The notes beneath the pieces are model-generated. The model ran no database searches. It was not told the DNA's origin and was given only the letters and a program-made list of their open reading frames with translations. A stretch of DNA of 38,014 nt, from the UHGV virus genome UHGV-0042156; one strand, written 5' to 3'. Positions 3,421 to 17,204 of the stretch are shown piece after piece (the stretch's first letter is position 1; each line of letters starts with the position of its first letter). The DNA comes from a virus. The position numbers and the translations under genes are program-made.

Positions 3421-4082
3421 AGCGCGGATCCTTTGCGAATTTGCTCCCTGAACAAGCGGGCTGAGACGATGATGTCTCTGATGCGTACTGATTTTTCGTC
3501 GAACTGCTCACCACCGTTTTTAATATGCGCATCCAGTTCTGCACTGTGATGCTGGATGAAAGCGTTGAGGCACTGCGCCCGCACTTCAGCCATGAAAGCG
3601 TCGGTGGCTGGGGTTTTGTTATCTGACTCCAGCCACTGGTTGTAGTAATAATCGAACATGCCAGTAGGATAACCACATCCGCTGTGCACGTGGTCTTTCA
3701 TAGCAGAACCACACATACAGTAGTCATTGTCAGTATTACTAATGATGTCGATAAGTTGCTGTGTCCGTTGCTTCAACATCGCATTCTCCGCCGCCAGCGC
3801 CGAAAACTTCTCGTGTGCCAACTTAACAGCTGCATCAGCCTGCTTAATTGACTCAGTCGCTTTCTGGTGGTCTTCGGCCAGCCCTGCTAAATCAGCCTCC
3901 AGTTCGGCTAGGCGTTCATTTAATGCATCTCGTTCATCCAGTAGAGCCAGCACAACCTGAGGTGTTACTTTCATACGAAATGCCAGCAATTTTTGAGGCG
4001 TTGCTACTGTTTCAATTGCTACTGCTGCCTCACGCAGTACCTGATAGTCAATCTTGCTCACTGGTTGCCTCCTTTGCGCCAC
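3417..4082 (-). CDS. Ead/Ea22-like coiled-coil protein
   Basis: 221-aa ORF with long coiled-coil ([20 protein letters not shown]...) and Cys/His cluster; typical of the lambdoid early-left region. Confidence 0.65.
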
Positions 4083-4225
4083 ATCGCATTCAGATATTTG
4101 TTGTCATTAACAGAACCGAAACTCTTTCTCTTAAGTAATTCCTCTCTCGATGGCATTGGCTTTACGCGTTGGCGAATAATCATTTCTGCCGGAAGAATGC
4201 CGGGATTGTATGCAAGTCCTCTCAT
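4058..4225 (-). CDS. Small hypothetical protein (start uncertain; alternatives 4243, 4258)
   Basis: In-frame ATGs; chosen start has GAGGA 9 nt upstream. Confidence 0.4.
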
Positions 4226-4235
4226 GGTAAATTCC

Positions 4236-4532
4236 TCAGTCATTACTGATAGCGCCATAGCGTGAGCGGTAATTACGCAGGCGCGGGTCGATATATTCAG
4301 GGAAGTGGGTATATGTGGCTTTGCGGAATGGTCGGATTGATGTCTGGTAAATTCGCTCGCGTTCTTCTTTCTCTGCAAGCCATATACAGTGGCGAAATTC
4401 CTTTTCCTCTTTCGTTTCCTGCGGTAGAGACATTATTCGATCGTAGTTTTTCCTGAATTTATCCAGCACCTCCGATACGGAATTGCCGGAACAGCGGCGC
4501 GCGTCATCCGCACCATACAGAGGCACTGGCAT
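4236..4532 (-). CDS. Hypothetical early protein
   Basis: 98-aa ORF. Confidence 0.6.
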
Positions 4533-4555
4533 AATTAAATCCTTATTTTTCTAAA

Positions 4556-4939
4556 TCAGAATGGGATGGAATCGTCGTATACAGGAGTGTTCTGCTGGTT
4601 ACTACTTTGCTGCTGCTGGCTGTTTCCTGAAGTTGCAAATCCAATCTTTGCATTCAGTAATTCAAGAGTGATTGATTGACCATTTTGCCCCTGATAAACA
4701 TCAACCCTGATGTTTTCTCCGGTAATTTCCACAATTCCACCTTCAACAAGAACACTACGGTAGTAATCCGCTTGCGCTCCCGGCTTGGCAAATACAACGG
4801 CGCTGTAGTTTGTCCATTCTTTCTTTTTTGTCTGGCGATCGTAATACTGAACGCCAGCACGGATGTTGAATCCGATATTTTCCCCGGCCTGAAACTCTCT
4901 TGCGGGCTTGTTTAGTCTTACAGTAATCGAATGTGCCAT
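4556..4939 (-). CDS. Single-stranded DNA-binding-like protein
   Basis: 127-aa ORF; Q/S-rich linker (SGNSQQQQSSNQQ) and C-terminal acidic tail ...YDDSIPF resembling the SSB DDDIPF tip; immediately downstream of erf. Confidence 0.7.
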   Translation of the reverse strand: MAHSITVRLNKPAREFQAGENIGFNIRAGVQYYDRQTKKKEWTNYSAVVFAKPGAQADYYRSVLVEGGIVEITGENIRVDVYQGQNGQSITLELLNAKIGFATSGNSQQQQSSNQQNTPVYDDSIPF

Positions 4940-5544
4940 TAAGCAGCCGCTCCTTCTAATTCGTCTCGTCTGATGTTGTAAACGTCCTGCGCTTTGTGCT
5001 GCTCAGGTGTGCCTTCGAGCATCTTCCACGCTTTGGCGAACGCCTGTTTAAGCTCTTCCACGGTGTTTTTCTGCATTGCTGCGTCAGTGAATGCTTTTAG
5101 AACCTGTTCAGGTGTAGGTGATGGTTTTGATTGCTTTGCTGCTGCGTTCTGCTGATGTTTATGCTCGTCTGTATCTGCATCTTTCGCATCATCAATGCCG
5201 AACAAACCATTGAGGCAATACTTGCGCGCATAAGAACTTGTAGCTCCAGTAACTTGTGCAGAATCCATTCCTTTCTTGCTTTCTTCCTCTCGTGCAAGAG
5301 CGGTTGCCGTATGACTGTTTTCGCCATCGGTAATAGTTGCCGTGGCTTTCACGTAATACCGATCACCAATCAACACAACTTCATCGCTGATTGATAAAAA
5401 CAGGCCATTCAGTAACGGCTTAACGCCTTCAAGAATGTCTTCGCAGCTTCTGTATTTATATTTGCCGAATGAGTTGTACTGATTCTTTGGCGCGTTCAGA
5501 TTCTCCTGAATAGCTGCCAGTCTTGCGTAAAATTCTTTGCTCAT
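4939..5544 (-). CDS. erf: Erf single-strand annealing recombinase (P22 Erf-like)
   Basis: Starts MSKEFYARLAAIQENLNAPKNQYNSFGKYKYRSCEDILEGVKPLL, colinear with P22 Erf as recalled; ORF-track start 5574 is an N-terminal extension. Confidence 0.85.
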   Translation of the reverse strand: MSKEFYARLAAIQENLNAPKNQYNSFGKYKYRSCEDILEGVKPLLNGLFLSISDEVVLIGDRYYVKATATITDGENSHTATALAREEESKKGMDSAQVTGATSSYARKYCLNGLFGIDDAKDADTDEHKHQQNAAAKQSKPSPTPEQVLKAFTDAAMQKNTVEELKQAFAKAWKMLEGTPEQHKAQDVYNIRRDELEGAAA

Positions 5545-5633
5545 ATGATTGTTCTCAGAATGGACATGGCCCAAGGAAATAACGCTGATTTAATACTTCA
5601 GTCTTTGCCGCATTCAAAAATACGCGAACACCT

Positions 5634-9027: not shown

Positions 9028-9117
9028 NNNNNNNNNNNNNNNNNNNNNNNNNNNNNNNNNNNNNNNNNNNNNNNNNNNNNNNNNNNNNNNNNNNNNNNNN
9101 NNNNNNNNNNNNNNNNN
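9028..9117. other. Run of 90 N (assembly gap or masked sequence)
   Basis: Literal n characters; flanked on both sides by ccc. Confidence 1.
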
Positions 9118-10629: not shown

Positions 10630-10908
10630 ATGCAACTTACAAGTACTCGCAAGAAAGCGAATGCAATTACAAGCAACATCCTGAATAGAATTGCTGTACG
10701 TGGTCAGCGAAAGGTTGCCGACGCGTTAGGGATTAATGAATCGCAAATTTCGCGATGGAAAGACAGCTTCATCCCCAAAATGGGAATGCTTCTGGCTGTT
10801 CTTGAATGGGGTGTTGTTGATGATGAGATGGCGAGACTTGCTCAGCAGGTGGCATCGATTCTCACAAAAGAAAAACGCCCAGCTGTTGGTAGCAGTCTGG
10901 ACGCTTAA
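10630..10908 (+). CDS. cII: CII transcriptional activator
   Basis: 92 aa; ...DALGINESQISRWKDSFIPKMGMLLAVLEWGVVDDEMARLAQQVASILT is colinear with lambda CII; ORF-track start 10543 spans nutR and is rejected. Confidence 0.85.
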   Translation: MQLTSTRKKANAITSNILNRIAVRGQRKVADALGINESQISRWKDSFIPKMGMLLAVLEWGVVDDEMARLAQQVASILTKEKRPAVGSSLDA

Positions 10909-10942
10909 GCACACTGTGTTACGCCAAGTAACAGGAGTAATT

Positions 10943-11347
10943 ATGCCAGGACAAACCAAGCAAGTAAACACCGGCATAAAGGCCGGTGACAAGTTCGAAA
11001 CCGTATATCCATTTATCTTCGTATGCACAGATTATCAGTCTTATGACGGCAACGTGCATACCGATGAGCGCTGGATTGGCGGTTGTCACAAAAATTATGA
11101 GCCAGCCGATTGTGGTTATGGTGATCAGTGTTTTTACACCGCTGATGCTGAAGGAAAGAGAATTCTTGAGGTTCTGGCAGTGGTGGAAATGCCAGGCAAC
11201 TGGCAGCGCAGAATCATTTATTCGTGCCACCTCATAGAGCCTGAAGGCAAGGAGAGGAAAGGAAGGAAGGCTTACACAGTCACCGAATCAAGGTTTTTAA
11301 AAATGTCTACTGGTTACTTCGCTGATTACGAAGTAGAGGAGGCTTAA
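10943..11347 (+). CDS. Hypothetical Cys-rich protein between cII and O (134 aa)
   Basis: AGGAG SD 5 nt before ATG at 10943; ORF-track start 10736 overlaps cII out of frame and is rejected. Confidence 0.7.
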
Positions 11348-11489
11348 TGACAAAACCACTCAGTCCTTACCAGGACAAAATTCACAAACACATACTACGT
11401 GATCGCTTCCTGTCCAGCTTCAAGCAGCCTGGTCGATTCCGGGCTGAGTTGGAAAAAGTGAAGCTGATGCAGAAGGAGAAAGGTCATGA
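11347..11489 (+). CDS. Small hypothetical protein (47 aa), coupled between upstream gene and O
   Basis: Start overlaps upstream stop (TAATG), stop overlaps O start (ATGA); manual translation [48 protein letters not shown]. Confidence 0.5.
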
Positions 11490-12346
11490 GTAATCTTGCA
11501 ACCGTAACACATTTAAGGCCTTCACAACGGCCTGTGGAGCGTCGTGTGGCAGAAGTTGAAGATGGTTATACCCGTCTTGCAAATGCCCTGTATGAAGAGC
11601 TTATCGGCGCAGATTTAACGAAAAATCAGAGCAAGGTTGCCCACGCCATATGCCGTAAAACATACGGCTACGGTAAAAAGATGGATCGCATCTCTGATAG
11701 TCAGTTAGCTCAAATTACCAGGCTGCCAAGACAGAAGGTAAACAAGGCCAAGAATGAGCTTATCGCGATGAAGGTTATCCTTCGCGAAGGCCAGCAAATC
11801 GGGCCTAACAAGAACATCGAGGAATGGCAAATAGAAGGGTGTCACTACTCTGGTGATAATGTCACTGCATTGGTGACAAAAAGTGTCACCAAAACGGTGA
11901 CAGCGCTGTCACCAAAACAGGGACACACAAAAGAAACTATTACAAAAGAAAAAAGAAATAATAAAAACACTATGTCCGAAAGTGTTCGGACGGAGTGTGA
12001 AAAATCACATGACCGTCACGAAGAAACCGACAAGGCATTCGAGGAAATATTCTGGTGTGCAGGCATGCGGAAAGCCGGGAAGAAAAACGCAGCTTCGGCA
12101 TTCAGAACACAGTTCAGGGAATGGCGTAAAACTACCAGGGGTACGGCAAGCGAGTTTGCCACGATGCTGGCAGAAGACATCGCATGCAGGAATGGTAAGC
12201 AGTTCGGATTCGACAGGTTGTTACCATCGAGCTACCTGAACGGTCAGCGCTGGAACGACGAAAAGCCAGAAACCATTCAACCACAATCCAAACCATCATC
12301 CGCAATCACCGTATCGAAAACTGGCTACGTGTTTTTCGACAGGTGA
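11486..12346 (+). CDS. O: Replication initiator O (lambda O-like N-terminal domain)
   Basis: N-terminus [61 protein letters not shown] colinear with lambda O; iterons lie inside the gene. Confidence 0.85.
11841..11970. repeat. Replication origin: GTCAC/GGTGACA iteron array plus AT-rich tract
   Basis: Repeats GTCAC(11841), GGTGA(11852), GTCAC(11861), GGTGACA(11872), GTGTCACC(11883), GGTGACA(11896), TGTCACC(11907); then aaagaaactattacaaaagaaaaaagaaataataaaaac. Confidence 0.6.
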
Positions 12347-12453
12347 ACCATGAAATCAAAAATCAAATCGCTACTGGTCGCTGGTTATAACCACGGCTGG
12401 TTAAGTATTTCGTTTGTCGATTTCTGGTTTAAAAATCTCAATCTGAGGGAATC

Positions 12454-14334
12454 ATGAGGCCAAGTGAACTCAGCGACCTGCTTTGGGCGCAGGTTGACAG
12501 GGTGGCTCCGCACCTGTTGCCAAACGGCAAGAAAGATGGGCATGAGTGGGTTGCCGGTAACGTCAACGGTGACAAGGGAAACAGCCTTAAGGTCAATCTT
12601 AGCGGCAAGAAAAAATGGGCTGATTTCGCTGAGGGGGACGGCGGTGACATGCTTGATTTGTGGATGGCATGTCGTGGAATTAACCTGCATCAGGCTATGC
12701 AGGAAGCGAAAGCATTTCTCGGTATCAAGGATGACGATCACCATTTCGATGCCAAACGTGAGAAGAAATTCTCCAGACCTGATCGCAAGAAAATCGCCCG
12801 CTACGTTACCAGAACAGAATCCCATCTTGAGTACCTGCAATCGCGTGGCATATCGCCAGAAGTCGTAAAGCGCTACGAGGTTGTCAGCGGCAAGGTGTGG
12901 AATGGAGAGCGGGAACTGGATGCTCTGGTGATTCCGTACAAACGCGATGGTGAGTTGTTGCAGGTAAAGCGAATCAGCACTGAGCGCCCGGACGGGAAGA
13001 AAGTTATTATGGCAGAAGGTGATTGCGAACCTTGTCTGTTCGGATGGCAGGCTCTGGACGCTGGCGTGAGGGCGGTTGTGCTTTGCGAAGGCGAAATTGA
13101 TTGTATGAGCTATGCGCAATACGGCATCTCGGCGTTATCCGTGCCGTTTGGTGGCGGGAAAGGCGCTAAGCAACAGTGGATTGAGTTTGAGTATCACAAC
13201 CTCGACAGGTTTGAGGAAATATTCATCTCGATGGACGTTGATGATGTTGGTCGTGAAGCCGCAAGGGAAATTGCAAGCCGACTTGGTGAACATCGTTGCC
13301 GTCTTGTTACTCTGCCGTACAAAGACATCAACGAATGCCTGATGAACGGTGTTACCGAGGATGAAATCTGGCAGTACATCGGCACGGCATCCTACTTCGA
13401 TCCTGAAGAACTCTACAGCGCGCGAGAGTTTTACCAGGACACTATCAACGCTTTCTACGGCAAGCAGCAGTATCTGTTTAATCCACCGTGGGAATCTCTG
13501 GCAGATAAATTCCAGTTCCGTGAGGCAGAGTTGACGCTGGTCAATGGTGTGAACGGTCACGGAAAAACGGAGGTTGTCGGGCATATGGCACTTGAGGCAA
13601 TGCGTCATGGTGTGAAGACGTGCATCGCGTCACTTGAGCTGAAGCCTGGTATTCTCCTTAAGCGCCTTACCCGTCAGGCGACGTGCTGCAAGATGCCGCC
13701 AGTGCTGGAAATTGACTCTGCATTTAAATTTTATGACGAAAGACTTTGGGTGTTTGGTCTGACCGGAACGGCGAAAGCCGACAGGCTGATCGAAATATTC
13801 GACTACGCTCGCCGCCGATACGGGATCCAGTTATTCATCATCGACAGCCTGATGAAATGTGGCATAGGCGACGATGACTATAACGGGCAGAAGGCGTTTG
13901 TTGACTCGATTTGCGACTTCAAAAACAAAACAAACTCCCACGTCATTCTCGTTACTCACTCGCGAAAAGGAGACAGCGAAGAAAAACCAACCGGGAAAAT
14001 GGACGTAAAAGGCTCTGGAGCGATAACAGACCTGACAGACAACCTTTTCATCATCTGGCGTAACAAGGCTCGCGAGAGAGCGTTACAGAGAGTTCAGAGT
14101 GGTGAAAAGATGTCAGAGAAGGACGAACAGCTACTGGCATCTCCGGCATCTGTTTTGATGCTTGAAAAACAACGTAACGGCGAAGGTTGGGAAGGTGGCG
14201 TCCCTTTGTTCCTTGACGAGCAATCGCACCAGTTCCTGCAACTTGAATCAGGATCGCCTTATAGCTACATCGCCAATATGCCGAAATCGGAATATGACGA
14301 GGCGTGGCGACAGGAAAACGTGACGGAGTATTAA
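12454..14334 (+). CDS. Bifunctional primase-helicase (Toprim primase plus DnaB/RecA-like ATPase)
   Basis: 626-aa ORF; Toprim-like acidic cluster (VVLCEGEIDCMS, DVDDVGRE); Walker A GVNGHGKT and Walker B-like LFIIDSL; GAGGGA SD; occupies the lambda P slot. Confidence 0.8.
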   Translation: MRPSELSDLLWAQVDRVAPHLLPNGKKDGHEWVAGNVNGDKGNSLKVNLSGKKKWADFAEGDGGDMLDLWMACRGINLHQAMQEAKAFLGIKDDDHHFDAKREKKFSRPDRKKIARYVTRTESHLEYLQSRGISPEVVKRYEVVSGKVWNGERELDALVIPYKRDGELLQVKRISTERPDGKKVIMAEGDCEPCLFGWQALDAGVRAVVLCEGEIDCMSYAQYGISALSVPFGGGKGAKQQWIEFEYHNLDRFEEIFISMDVDDVGREAAREIASRLGEHRCRLVTLPYKDINECLMNGVTEDEIWQYIGTASYFDPEELYSAREFYQDTINAFYGKQQYLFNPPWESLADKFQFREAELTLVNGVNGHGKTEVVGHMALEAMRHGVKTCIASLELKPGILLKRLTRQATCCKMPPVLEIDSAFKFYDERLWVFGLTGTAKADRLIEIFDYARRRYGIQLFIIDSLMKCGIGDDDYNGQKAFVDSICDFKNKTNSHVILVTHSRKGDSEEKPTGKMDVKGSGAITDLTDNLFIIWRNKARERALQRVQSGEKMSEKDEQLLASPASVLMLEKQRNGEGWEGGVPLFLDEQSHQFLQLESGSPYSYIANMPKSEYDEAWRQENVTEY

Positions 14335-14363: not shown

Positions 14364-14395
14364 AGGCCTGCTGGTAATCGCAGGCCTTTTTATTT
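14364..14395 (+). terminator. Rho-independent terminator (tR2-like) before nin region
   Basis: AGGCCTGC-TGGTAATC-GCAGGCCT followed by TTTTTATTT. Confidence 0.65.
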
Positions 14396-14411
14396 GGGGG
14401 AGAGGGAAGTC

Positions 14412-14828
14412 ATGAAAAAGCTAACCTTTGAAATTCGATCTCCAGCACATCAGCAAAACGCTATTCACGCAGTACAGCAAATCCTTCCAGACCCAACCAA
14501 GCCAATCGTAGTAACCATTCAGGAGCGCAACCGCAGCATTCGGCAAAATGCACGCCTTCACGCGATGCTATCTGAAATAAGTAAGAAGGCTACATATCAT
14601 GGAAAAGTAAGAAATATTGAGTTTTGGAAGGGGTTATTCGTTTCTGGTTGGCAGATTGCAACCAACCAGCACCCTGAGATTATATCAGGGTTAGAAGGTG
14701 AGCTAATAAACATCAGAGAGAGTACGGCGACTCTATCTGTAAAAAAAATATCCGAAATAATGGACTACATAGAAGCATATTGTGCCATGAACTCAATTCA
14801 TCTTAGCGAATGGAGGAATTATGATTGA
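14412..14828 (+). CDS. ninB: NinB recombination protein (3' part divergent)
   Basis: MKKLTFEIRSPAHQQNAIHAVQQILPDPTKPIVVTIQERNRS matches lambda NinB as recalled, then continues in AT-rich divergent sequence to a new C-terminus. Confidence 0.85.
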   Translation: MKKLTFEIRSPAHQQNAIHAVQQILPDPTKPIVVTIQERNRSIRQNARLHAMLSEISKKATYHGKVRNIEFWKGLFVSGWQIATNQHPEIISGLEGELINIRESTATLSVKKISEIMDYIEAYCAMNSIHLSEWRNYD

Positions 14829-15394
14829 GGTTTGGGTAGATATCGAAGGGATTCCATTTTATCAGGTTAGCAATAAAGGAAATTTCAGGTCTATTACGAG
14901 GGAAGTTACAGTAACATCAACCAGACAGAGGCCATATAAGAAAATAATTAATGGCACTAGCGTAAAACCATTCAAGTGCAAGTCGACAGGATATCTTCAA
15001 ATAAAGGTATACGGTAAGAAATACAGCGCCCACAGGATAGTTGCGAAAGCATTCTGTACAGGGTTCTGTGATGGCTTGGTAGTTAATCACAAAAATGGGC
15101 AAAGAGATGACAATAGGGCTGAAAACCTTGAATGGGTATCACATTCTGAAAACTCAAAGCACGGATATAAACAAAATGGAAGAATACCTATATCGCTAGG
15201 TAAATTTAGTGGTGATCATCCTGCCAGTAAAGCTGTTATTTCTACTGACATGAAAACTGGTGAGGAGGTTTATTATGAAGCAGCTATGGATGCTGTCAGA
15301 GAAGGATTTGATAGTTCGTCAATTAGTCGTTGCTGTAATGGCGAAAGCTCATATCACAAAGGAAGATTCTGGCGATTTGCAAATGAAACAATGA
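14530..15394 (+). mobile_element. Putative HNH cassette: divergent ninB 3' segment plus HNH gene
   Basis: AT-rich block beginning where ninB diverges from lambda and ending where lambda-like ninB tail codons (KARWGDRAA) resume, now fused to the HNH ORF. Confidence 0.4.
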
Positions 15395-15423
15395 AAGCGA
15401 GATGGGGAGATCGGGCTGCATGA
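14821..15423 (+). CDS. HNH endonuclease (NUMOD4 plus HNH), C-terminally fused to ninB tail codons
   Basis: GIPFYQVSNKGNFRS (NUMOD4-like), VNHKNGQRDDNRAENLEWVSHSEN (HNH); ends ...[10 protein letters not shown]. Confidence 0.8.
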   Translation: MIEVWVDIEGIPFYQVSNKGNFRSITREVTVTSTRQRPYKKIINGTSVKPFKCKSTGYLQIKVYGKKYSAHRIVAKAFCTGFCDGLVVNHKNGQRDDNRAENLEWVSHSENSKHGYKQNGRIPISLGKFSGDHPASKAVISTDMKTGEEVYYEAAMDAVREGFDSSSISRCCNGESSYHKGRFWRFANETMKARWGDRAA

Positions 15424-16533: not shown

Positions 16534-16702
16534 CCCATCCCAATCCCTTCAATACCAGAAAGAAAGCGTCGAGCGGGCTTTAACGTGCGCTAACTGCGGT
16601 CAGAAGCTGCATGTGCTGGAAGTTCACGTGTGCTCAGATTGCTGCGCAGAACTGATGAGCGATCCGAATAGCTCAATGTACGAGGAAGAAGACGATGAAT
16701 GA
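16526..16702 (+). CDS. ninF: NinF
   Basis: Manual translation [58 protein letters not shown], near-identical to lambda NinF as recalled; below ORF-track size cutoff. Confidence 0.7.
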   Translation: MLSPSQSLQYQKESVERALTCANCGQKLHVLEVHVCSDCCAELMSDPNSSMYEEEDDE

Positions 16703-17204
16703 TGTTAAAGAAAAAGATATCCCCGGCTTTGAGGGTATATATAAAGTAAATGAAAATGGAGACATCATTTCATGCCGTAAATCAAAAAAATTATCTCATG
16801 GCATTAAACCAGGAGGATATGCATTTGTCGGTCTGTATCCAGGTGGCGGGAAAAGACCATCATATAAAATGGTTCACAGAATTGTTGCAGAAGTATTTAT
16901 TGATAACCCAGATGGCAAACCGGAAGTTAATCACAAGGATGGAAATAAACTTAATAATAAAGTTGAAAATCTTGAGTGGGTAACGCGAACAGAAAATGCG
17001 AAACATGGATTTGATTCCGGATTGCTTGTTCATGGGTTTAATCATCACTTCTGCAAACTAACGCCAGAACAAGTGAAATCAATATATAAATCAAAAGGCA
17101 AATACAGAGATATAGCCAAAGAATTTGGTGTTTGTGCGCAGACAGTGTGCAACATAAAAAACAAATCAGCGTACCGACGTTTTTTGGAGGGGATTGATGT
17201 TTAG
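16695..17204 (+). CDS. HNH endonuclease (NUMOD4 plus HNH plus C-terminal HTH)
   Basis: IPGFEGIYKVNENGDIIS, VNHKDGNKLNNKVENLEWVTRTEN, DIAKEFGVCAQTVCNIKN; overlaps ninF stop and next gene start; AT-rich. Confidence 0.8.
   Translation: MNDVKEKDIPGFEGIYKVNENGDIISCRKSKKLSHGIKPGGYAFVGLYPGGGKRPSYKMVHRIVAEVFIDNPDGKPEVNHKDGNKLNNKVENLEWVTRTENAKHGFDSGLLVHGFNHHFCKLTPEQVKSIYKSKGKYRDIAKEFGVCAQTVCNIKNKSAYRRFLEGIDV

Follow-up and report, generated by a model that had tools for sequence, protein, structure and literature searches.

A T7 gp4-like primase-helicase in the lambda P slot of a lambdoid phage

In phages lambda and P22 the slot just after the O-type initiator is filled by P and gp12, respectively. 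The virus genome UHGV-0042156, whose full 38,014 nt we refer to as the window, raises the question of what fills this slot in a lambdoid phage without P, and of how far such a phage would still depend on the replication proteins of its host. A preliminary description, made from the sequence alone, had proposed that a 626-aa protein combining a Toprim-type primase core with a DnaB/RecA-like ATPase stands in place of lambda P. We found that the ORF is exactly as described, with an ATG start and 626 codons for amino acids, and that both domains are present with intact catalytic residues. The features of the locus are collected in Table 1. A 244-aa antisense ORF (12385..13119) was rejected as a gene because it is wholly contained in the conserved primase-helicase coding sequence.

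Table 1. Features of the replication region, with coordinates in the window and residue numbers in the 626-aa protein
Feature	Coordinates	Strand	Basis
O-type initiator, 286 aa	11486..12346	+	Phage_rep_O E 1e-37; TIGR01610 E 2e-30
Four ~19-20-bp iterons, TGTCAC-N7-GTGACA type, within O; predicted origin	11840..11925	.	repeat search
A+T-rich stretch beside iterons	11927..11975	.	direct sequence reading
35-aa ORF (MKSKIKSLLVAGYNHGWLSISFVDFWFKNLNLRES)	12350..12457	+	sequence; ES18 gp60 equivalent; phrog_21848
Primase-helicase gene	12454..14334	+	ORF; PHROG 239; T7 gp4/Twinkle family by sequence and fold
Diverged CHC2 (DnaG-type) zinc-ribbon domain without zinc ligands, residues 26-92	12529..12729	+	Pfam, TIGR01391, AF2 model
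Primase RNA-polymerase domain, residues ~100-296 (N-terminal subdomain and TOPRIM)	12751..13341	+	Toprim_2, T7 1nui, Aquifex DnaG 2au3
TOPRIM, residues 209-296	13078-13341	+	Pfam Toprim_2
SF4 (DnaB/RecA-like) helicase domain, residues 355-594	13516..14235	+	AAA_25, DnaB_C, motif conservation
Walker A GHGKT	13558-13572	+	helicase domain sequence
Terminator-like hairpin and T-run at the boundary of replication genes and nin region	14364..14387	+	consensus scan

The family of the protein is apparent over nearly its whole length, as PHROG 239 ('DNA primase/helicase') covers residues 4-622 with an E value of 2e-171. Its closest solved relatives, by sequence and by fold alike, are T7 gp4 and Twinkle. 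T7 gp4 is matched at E 4e-23 when the sequence is used alone and at 4e-52 with the family profile, at about 21% identity, and Twinkle, a member of the same family, is matched by profile at E 1e-46 and is a top Foldseek match. With a shallow alignment (25 sequences of 69% identity or more) AF2 gave a poor model, at a pLDDT of 64.6, which was replaced by a model from an alignment of 125 diverse representatives that reached 93.9. Foldseek aligned this model with T7 gp4 5ikn_J at a target-normalised TM of 0.75 (rmsd 4.3 over 501 columns, E 3e-27) and with 1q57 at a TM of 0.68. Primase and helicase thus form one polypeptide with a gp4-like overall fold, the primase being N-terminal and a linker lying between the two, and the order of domains is that of T7 gp4 (ribbon, RNA-polymerase/TOPRIM, linker, SF4 helicase), with TOPRIM and helicase motifs H1-H4 aligning one to one. 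The Pfam search that the preliminary description had suggested as a check returned both activities rather than only one: Toprim_2 (E 3e-12) and AAA_25 (residues 357-507; 27.4 bits against a cut-off of 27) scored above threshold, and DnaB_C, at 23.7 bits, fell slightly under its cut-off of 27.

Conservation within each half is consistent with two working active sites. In the primase half, residues ~100-208 make up the N-terminal subdomain of the RNA-polymerase domain, and the T7 primase fragment 1nui matches positions 101-301 of the family profile (E 5e-29). The TOPRIM metal-binding residues E212, D216, D261, D263 and D291 align with T7 E157, D161, D207, D209 and D237, and between 118 and 124 of the 125 relatives, which reach down to 34% identity, retain each of them. 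In the helicase half, motifs H1 (Walker A, K371/T372), H1a (E395), H2 (Walker B, D464), H3 (H502) and H4 are invariant or nearly so, with K371, E395, D464, H502 and K505 found in 125/125 relatives, and the motif residues align with T7 K318, E343, D424, H465 and R522. The last of these is the T7 arginine finger, which is replaced here by K519; in the family this position holds lysine in 78 and arginine in 36 of the 125 relatives, and the SF4 motif set, with an Arg/Lys finger, is complete. The catalytic residues of both halves are therefore kept across 125 relatives spanning 34-94% identity. The protein is not an orthologue of DnaB: Pfam finds no DnaB N-terminal domain in it, its N-terminal half is primase, and DnaB structures match only its ATPase domain in Foldseek. 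Judged by sequence and predicted fold, the product is a bifunctional DnaG-type primase and SF4 hexameric helicase of the T7 gp4/Twinkle family.

The N-terminus required closer attention, as its first ~150 residues had been described as free of any recognisable motif and as possibly a zinc-binding or O-interaction region. Pfam gave no match for residues 1-200 at E values up to 1, while a 109-residue N-terminal fragment gave a weak CHC2 match, and a profile of these 109 residues found nothing meaningful among PDB sequences, with no solved zinc-binding domain and only a pseudouridine synthase at E ~0.5. Since this profile was uninformative, the assignment is built on four other observations. TIGR01391 dnaG (NCBIfam) matches residues 26-143 at E 1e-9. 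Pfam Zn_ribbon_DnaG aligns residues 26-92 colinearly with positions 26-92 of its 98 (E 0.1, sub-threshold) and is the only Pfam family matched recurrently by the N-terminus, in 8 of 30 relatives with a best E of 3e-4. The full-length family profile matches Aquifex DnaG 2au3 (E 6.5e-9) from profile position 57 onwards, and the AF2 model places five short strands ahead of two helices. These observations identify the N-terminus, by sequence and model, as a divergent CHC2 zinc ribbon of the DnaG type in which none of the four zinc ligands survives anywhere in the family. The equivalent positions are G35, N38, D57 and E60, and the sole cysteine of residues 1-110 is C73, as it is across the 125 relatives; a ribbon-like fold homologous to that of DnaG is thus combined with the absence of a Cys/His4 site. 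The region is accordingly neither unrecognisable, consisting of this ribbon and the primase subdomain, nor zinc-binding other than by descent, and its sequence indicates that canonical zinc binding is not possible.

The loss of the metal site sets the protein apart from T7 gp4, whose zinc-binding domain is required for template-directed primer synthesis. The ribbon here has no Cys4 site, is nearer to the bacterial DnaG CHC2 than to that of T7, and leaves the T7 zinc-binding domain unaligned by sequence. Metazoan Twinkle, which is not a primase, likewise has a ribbon without zinc ligands, its cysteines being absent, and because it demonstrates that the family tolerates this loss, membership in the T7 gp4/Twinkle family stands, as a zinc-less subgroup. 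The same comparison raises the alternative that the protein is only a helicase: with its metal site lost, what is left of the primase half could serve, as in metazoan Twinkle, for structure or DNA binding, and host DnaG would prime, as it does for P22 gp12. The non-ligands at all four CHC2 positions throughout the family would fit this alternative, as would the failure of the N-terminal domain alone to match any solved zinc-binding domain by sequence. We nevertheless consider it unlikely. Metazoan Twinkle lost its TOPRIM catalytic residues, and its primase activity, together with the cysteines, whereas the TOPRIM residues here are conserved as expected for an active site rather than for a relic. 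The ribbon itself is also under strong constraint, with seven near-invariant residues (G35, G39, G42, S44, D57, G64 and D65). Loss of the zinc ligands across the family beside a fully conserved TOPRIM would imply either an enzyme that primes independently of zinc or a ribbon put to a new use. We tentatively raise the possibility, which we hold to be doubtful, that the protein is such a zinc-independent primase-helicase, or that its ribbon has become a docking site for the C-terminal domain of O, with the 35-aa phrog_21848 microprotein as a possible loading or coupling cofactor, the whole forming a portable origin-to-fork cassette.

We found that the surroundings of the gene are those of a lambdoid replication region. 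The preliminary description was right that the protein takes the place of lambda P: the slot is occupied, BLASTP against lambda P found nothing better than E 0.81 over 11 residues, that is, no similarity, and neither Pfam nor PHROG matched it to P-like families. Between cII and NinB (14394..14828, downstream of the primase-helicase), ORFs, Pfam and PHROG revealed no P-, DnaC- or DnaB-type gene and no further replication gene. The preliminary description was mistaken in having the gene follow O directly, as the 107-nt spacer holds a conserved 35-aa ORF whose stop overlaps the ATG of the primase-helicase in the sequence ATGA. This small ORF matches phrog_21848 (E 4e-26), and its length and core motif are unchanged in relatives down to 60% primase-helicase identity. 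Downstream, the hairpin has an 8-bp stem, 6 of whose pairs are GC, ahead of TTTTATTT; it is a putative terminator whose position resembles that of lambda tR2. Prophage early regions do carry cargo such as defence or anti-defence ATPases, and the gene might have been a moron of this kind with no part in replication, an idea for which we found nothing specific. Its position between O and the nin region, which is the lambdoid replication slot, the translational coupling of its start to the ORF before it, its homology to replicative primase-helicases along the full length and the lack of any other helicase or loader gene in the phage all argue against it, and we regard it as effectively refuted by homology and context.

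The initiator upstream has the marks of a lambdoid O with an intragenic origin: a Phage_rep_O domain, four iterons agreeing in position and number with those of lambda ori, and an adjacent AT-rich tract that is the likely unwinding region. At the equivalent place the GenBank annotation of phage ES18, from which we took all ES18 gene labels, carries the note 'similar to lambda ori'. The origin-binding N-terminal domain of O spans residues 20-114 and the C-terminal domain, which belongs to phrog_33384 / phrog_270, residues ~155-286. In ES18, epsilon34, Sf101 and mEp043 the order of genes is the same as here (O, 35-aa ORF, primase-helicase, nin). The O of ES18, gp59, has a lambda-like N-terminal half, a different type from that found here, joined to a C-terminal half near-identical to that of the present O (68% identity overall), while the primase-helicase shows no such difference and the rest of the region is ES18-like. 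In Stx2 phages the C-terminal domain, small ORF and primase-helicase are the same but stand behind an unrelated HTH N-terminal domain, and megablast matches there run from mid-O to the end of the primase-helicase. By these sequence comparisons, the O C-terminal domain, the 35-aa ORF and the primase-helicase appear to be one travelling module behind differing origin-binding N-terminal domains.

A scan of viral contigs with the O C-terminal domain found it together with the 35-aa ORF and a full primase-helicase in 74 of the 74 contigs with enough downstream DNA, a close-range result, as the scan covered the closest 80 loci at 98-100% identity. The wider claim of co-inheritance is instead based on 34 more distant loci, in 20 of which an upstream initiator has a related C-terminal domain and often overlaps the start of the primase-helicase. 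Such co-inheritance is compatible with O recruiting the primase-helicase as lambda O recruits P-DnaB, and it is solely from co-inheritance that we infer a contact between the two proteins. The C-terminal domain of O does belong to a broad initiator family (phrog_270, and phrog_9327 'primosomal protein'), which could suggest that it loads host DnaB, possibly with the 35-aa peptide as a minimal loader, and that the primase-helicase is accessory or redundant. We consider this very improbable, given that the helicase motifs are invariant, that the 74/74 linkage points to the phage enzyme as the partner of this type of C-terminal domain, and that nothing resembling P, DnaC or DnaT turned up among the proteins of the module.

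Together, these findings favour, with a probability of roughly 0.75, the reading that the protein serves an 'ES18-type' lambdoid module as its replicative helicase and primase, that it is recruited by O, and that it frees the phage from a P-like loader, from DnaB/DnaC and from DnaG. The N-terminal domain of O would bind the four intragenic iterons and open the adjacent A+T-rich DNA, and its C-terminal domain would then bring the primase-helicase to the open origin. There the ring may assemble or open on single-stranded DNA without a separate loader, like T7 gp4 and Twinkle, and would move 5'-3' on the lagging-strand template, making its own RNA primers, presumably without zinc. Synthesis would fall to host DNA polymerase III, because the phage encodes no polymerase (the whole window has no unexplained ORF of polymerase size), with SSB from the host or of the phage's own. 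From its gene content the phage can reasonably be inferred not to depend on host DnaB and DnaG, an idea that is not new. Weighing against this reading are the missing zinc ligands, the sub-threshold DnaB_C score and the lysine at the place of the T7 arginine finger, where K and R alternate in the family.

T7 gp4 works with its own T7 polymerase at a transcription-activated origin, whereas the origin here is of the O/iteron type in a phage without a polymerase gene. Lambda P only hijacks host DnaB, and P22 gp12 is a DnaB-like helicase without a primase domain, unlike the enzyme here; what their modules share with the present one is an initiator C-terminal domain matched to its downstream partner. 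The mechanistic analogues are replicons with their own initiator, helicase and primase, such as RSF1010 (RepC/RepA/RepB') and P4 (alpha), which need no host DnaA, DnaB, DnaC or DnaG and still use host Pol III. Unlike the single polypeptide here, RSF1010 spreads these functions over three separate proteins and its primase is not of the TOPRIM type, while P4 alpha joins a DnaG-like primase to an SF3 rather than SF4 helicase and, unlike the enzyme here, binds the origin itself.

A T7-like primase-helicase in the lambda P slot is real, already known and a frequent feature of E. coli and Salmonella prophages. At the DNA level the gene shares 98.5% identity with those of Sf101 and mEp043, a copy at 100% identity is carried by E. 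coli MS 115-1, the protein is 94% identical to ES18 gp61 over all 626 residues, epsilon34 gp52 is a further orthologue, and we found the gene in 296 of 5,426 complete E. coli genomes (~5%). ES18 gp61 was labelled 'putative primase/helicase; similar to T7 gene 4' in GenBank in 2005, and the arrangement in P22-like phages was described in a 2023 paper. The finding is therefore correct but ordinary, and it carries little weight as a discovery, as GenBank has shown the family, its lambdoid position and its likely role since 2005, and publications have followed. We found no experiment in the literature on this primase-helicase or its close relatives, and apparently there is no biochemistry for the zinc-less subgroup. 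The same cassette of O, 35-aa ORF and primase-helicase occurs in Stx2 phages from outbreak strains, where it constitutes the uncharacterised 'Eru5' replication unit, and replication of such 'Eru' types in Stx phages has been stated to be unstudied (PMC8951638). How the enzyme primes and is loaded, and what the 35-aa ORF does, bear to some extent on medicine, since some Stx2 phages replicate, and thereby set their toxin gene dosage, through the same module. If the reading as a portable cassette is true, the three genes would make a lambdoid phage independent of host DnaB, DnaC and DnaG. In practice the gene is useful as a reminder that 'lambdoid' does not equal lambda-style dependence on these proteins. 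Labels still vary: the Sf101 and mEp043 proteins are called 'toprim domain-containing protein' or 'DNA primase/helicase', and primase-helicases of this kind are still mislabelled 'P' (Min27, 24B) or given merely as 'toprim domain-containing protein'.

The open reading frame that occupies the slot where lambda has P was found exactly at the coordinates and length given in the preliminary description, and a domain search bore out its reading as a Toprim primase and a DnaB/RecA-like ATPase in one protein. Pfam placed Toprim_2 at residues 209–296 (E 3e-12), AAA_25 at residues 357–507 (27.4 bits against a cut-off of 27) and DnaB_C at residues 355–594 (23.7 bits, slightly below the cut-off of 27), and residues 4–622 match PHROG 239, 'DNA primase/helicase' (E 2e-171). 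The sole inexact point was that the gene follows O 'directly', as a 107-nt spacer containing a small ORF, orf35, lies between them. NinB is the next gene downstream (Pfam/NCBIfam), and the early genes run in the order cI-like repressor, cro, cII, DUF2740 ORF, O and then the nin region; the order around the primase-helicase is that of a standard lambdoid early-right operon. Thirty nt past the primase-helicase stop is a GC-rich hairpin with a T-run (14364–14387, +), a consensus match only, at the position equivalent to that of tR2 in lambda. Between cII and O lie a 203-aa ORF (10736–11347, +) matching phrog_30464 from residue 70 and the gene for the 48-aa DUF2740 protein (11347–11493, +); the PHROGs label of the latter, 'tail protein', is implausible given its location. 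Just left of the repressor gene, 90 consecutive N (9028–9117) stand for masked or unresolved sequence. Within the nin region, two paralogous HNH endonuclease genes (14821–15423 and 16695–17204, both +; phrog_59, E 3e-39 and 2e-50) flank, one per side, a Dam-like methyltransferase and a phrog_444 ORF, and look like homing-endonuclease cargo.

Features of the replication module and primase-helicase residues with their T7 gp4 equivalents
Feature	Position	Strand	Detail
O homologue	11486..12346	+	Phage_rep_O E 1e-37; TIGR01610 E 2e-30
Four iterons	11840-11925		~19-20-bp inverted repeats, inside O
A+T-rich tract	11927-11975		directly after iterons
orf35	12350..12457	+	35 aa, MKSKIKSLLVAGYNHGWLSISFVDFWFKNLNLRES; in O/primase-helicase spacer
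Primase-helicase gene	12454..14334	+	ATG start, 626 aa
TOPRIM	E212		T7 gp4 E157
TOPRIM	D216		T7 gp4 D161
TOPRIM	D261		T7 gp4 D207
TOPRIM	D263		T7 gp4 D209
TOPRIM	D291		T7 gp4 D237
Walker A	K371/T372		T7 gp4 K318/S319
H1a	E395		T7 gp4 E343
Walker B	D464		T7 gp4 D424
H3	H502		T7 gp4 H465
Arg finger	K519		T7 gp4 R522

By sequence, the closest solved relatives of the primase-helicase are T7 gp4 structures (5ikn, 6n7i, 1q57; E about 1e-23), and Twinkle (8e2l) also matches (E 3e-13). With a profile of 125 relatives, T7 gp4 rose to E 4e-52 and Twinkle to 1e-46, and the same profile matched the T7 primase fragment 1nui (E 5e-29), the T7 helicase fragment (E 4e-17), Aquifex DnaG 2au3 (E 6.5e-9) and DnaB helicases. 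An AlphaFold2 model on this alignment (pLDDT 93.9, pTM 0.76) had T7 gp4 chains as its top structural matches (Foldseek E 3e-27, target-normalised TM 0.75, rmsd 4.3, 501 columns), followed by Twinkle and next by DnaB and DnaG; a first model on a shallow alignment was of poor quality, yet indicated the same proteins. Residue equivalences with T7 gp4 were taken from the HMMER alignment. Each TOPRIM residue is retained in 118–124 of the 125 relatives (34–94% identity), K371, E395, D464, H502 and K505 are retained in all 125, and at position 519, 78 of them have K and 36 have R. Because the catalytic residues are conserved across these relatives, the primase and helicase halves both look like functional active sites.

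The N-terminal ~150 residues had been described as lacking a recognisable motif and as a possible zinc-binding region; the former did not hold, since they are homologous to the dnaG/CHC2 ribbon, and the latter survives by descent, with the ligands gone. The NCBIfam dnaG model aligns residues 26–143 with model positions 27–155 (E 1e-9), and Pfam Zn_ribbon_DnaG (CHC2), the only family recurring among relatives' N-termini (8/30, best E 3e-4), aligns residues 26–92 colinearly with positions 26–92 of 98 at a sub-threshold E of 0.1. The AlphaFold2 model has five short strands and then two helices at its N-terminus; full-length gp4 chains align with the model over 590 columns and Aquifex DnaG (zinc-binding and RNA-polymerase domains) over 386. 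From a manual alignment anchored on DnaG 'CFGCGxxGDxIxF' versus 'D57-F-A-E60-G-D-G-G-D65-M-L-D-L-W', we infer that the four zinc-ligand-equivalent positions are G35, N38, D57 and E60. In the family these columns are G (120/125), variable, D (119/125) and variable, and C73 is the single Cys within residues 1–110. Since the ligand positions are non-ligand family-wide and only one Cys is present, the N-terminal domain appears to be a zinc ribbon by descent with no canonical zinc binding, clade-wide. The assignment has good support, though some doubt is left, since a sequence profile restricted to the N-terminal 109 residues retrieved no solved relative. Residues ~100–208 correspond, judging from the 1nui match, to the N-terminal subdomain of the primase RNA-polymerase domain. 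The main rival reading is that a zinc-less primase is inactive and that host DnaG is still required, and the conserved TOPRIM centre counts against it. Independence from host DnaB and DnaG is plausible, judging from gene content.

No P-, DnaC- or DnaB-type gene was found in the window's replication slot, and no polymerase gene in the window; its large ORFs encode the structural proteins of a virion resembling that of P22, and the ORFs checked in the early-left region are Erf, SSB and unknowns. Read most simply, the phage would bring its own initiator, helicase and primase and borrow Pol III, an arrangement also used by RSF1010 and P4. In the literature we found no experiment on the O–orf35–primase-helicase module. 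Under the name 'Eru5', with reference phage Stx2a_F403, the same unit appears in a survey of Stx phages from 2022, which states that replication of Eru phages is wholly unknown (PMC8951638); Stx2a_F403 is among the megablast DNA matches to the primase-helicase region. The SSB gene (4556–4939, −; 127 aa, phrog_44), adjoined by an Erf-like annealing protein gene (4939–5574, −), ends in ...YDDSIPF, the same tip type as the E. coli SSB C-terminus, and the phage SSB could serve the phage replisome while still docking host SSB partners. Residues ~595–626 of the primase-helicase (14236–14331, +) form an acidic, aromatic tail (…YIANMPKSEYDEAWRQENVTEY) whose conservation extends to relatives of at least 69% identity and does not reach distant relatives. 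T7 gp4 holds its polymerase with an acidic C-terminal tail, and by analogy a partner-binding role is conceivable here.

The iterons and A+T-rich tract in O have the same layout as the lambda ori. The C-terminal half of O is unlike that of lambda O. ES18 gp59 combines a lambda-like N-terminal half with a C-terminal half nearly identical to that of the window's O, and an equivalent make-up is stated for epsilon34 gp50 (PMC2629481). Stx2 phages have an unrelated helix-turn-helix N-terminal domain on the same C-terminal domain (97% identity across residues 165–286), accompanied by the small ORF and the primase-helicase, and megablast matches in ES18, epsilon34 and Stx2 phages start at ~nt 430–480 of O and extend to the primase-helicase end. 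Of 80 viral contigs carrying the O C-terminal domain, 74 have sufficient downstream DNA, and every one of these encodes both the small ORF and the entire primase-helicase. At 20 of 34 viral loci with more distant primase-helicases, the initiator upstream clusters by similarity with the window's O in its C-terminal 140 residues; these initiators have several unrelated N-terminal domains, and their stop often overlaps the primase-helicase start. For lambda O and P it has long been known that O recognises the origin through its N-terminal domain and that its C-terminal domain is fitted to the partner encoded next, P. That co-inheritance of the C-terminal domain matches this pattern is the main argument for O recruiting the primase-helicase, from which we infer physical contact.

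The TGA of orf35 overlaps the primase-helicase ATG (ATGA). This ORF is ES18 gp60 and belongs to PHROG 21848 (phrog_21848); its length and core 'LL[VI]AGYNHG' are retained down to 60% primase-helicase identity amid many synonymous and flanking changes, and it is absent from relatives at 35–43%. It may act as a cofactor, or do no more than couple translation. Some related records, e.g. mEp043 PV340537, leave it unannotated.

The primase-helicase finding is correct and already known. The gene shares 98.5% DNA identity with those of Sf101 and mEp043, 91% with SEN22 and 88% with ES18 and epsilon34, and the ES18 entry from 2005 annotates it as 'putative primase/helicase; similar to phage T7 gene 4'. 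Other records use 'DNA primase/helicase', 'bifunctional DNA primase/helicase' or 'toprim domain-containing protein', and some wrongly 'P'. Clustering at 90% identity places the protein among 5,632 members, and at E up to 1e-3 it matches 8,345 cluster representatives. Of 5,426 complete E. coli genomes, 296 have the gene, and E. coli strain MS 115-1 holds an identical (100%) copy. No intein interrupts the window's gene. In Stx2-phage orthologues a 342-aa intein lies within the Walker A loop (GHGK|T), at 3608–4633 in the phage Min27 locus (L003, EU311208), and it is likewise present in a 968-aa relative (P0012) and in 3 of the 74 loci with the O C-terminal domain. It matches Hint and LAGLIDADG homing-endonuclease families and carries the class 3 intein signature, with Ala first, H-x-W in block B, Cys in block F and a T-H-N end followed by Thr. 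In the Min27 record (1609–2381, 4993–5403) the primase-helicase goes under the name 'P' and is divided between P (860 aa) and ORF31. The 'O' CDS of that record departs from the frame coding the conserved C-terminal domain of O, and tblastn locates this domain in another frame at 2016–2381; these frame breaks are probably sequencing frameshifts or mis-annotation.
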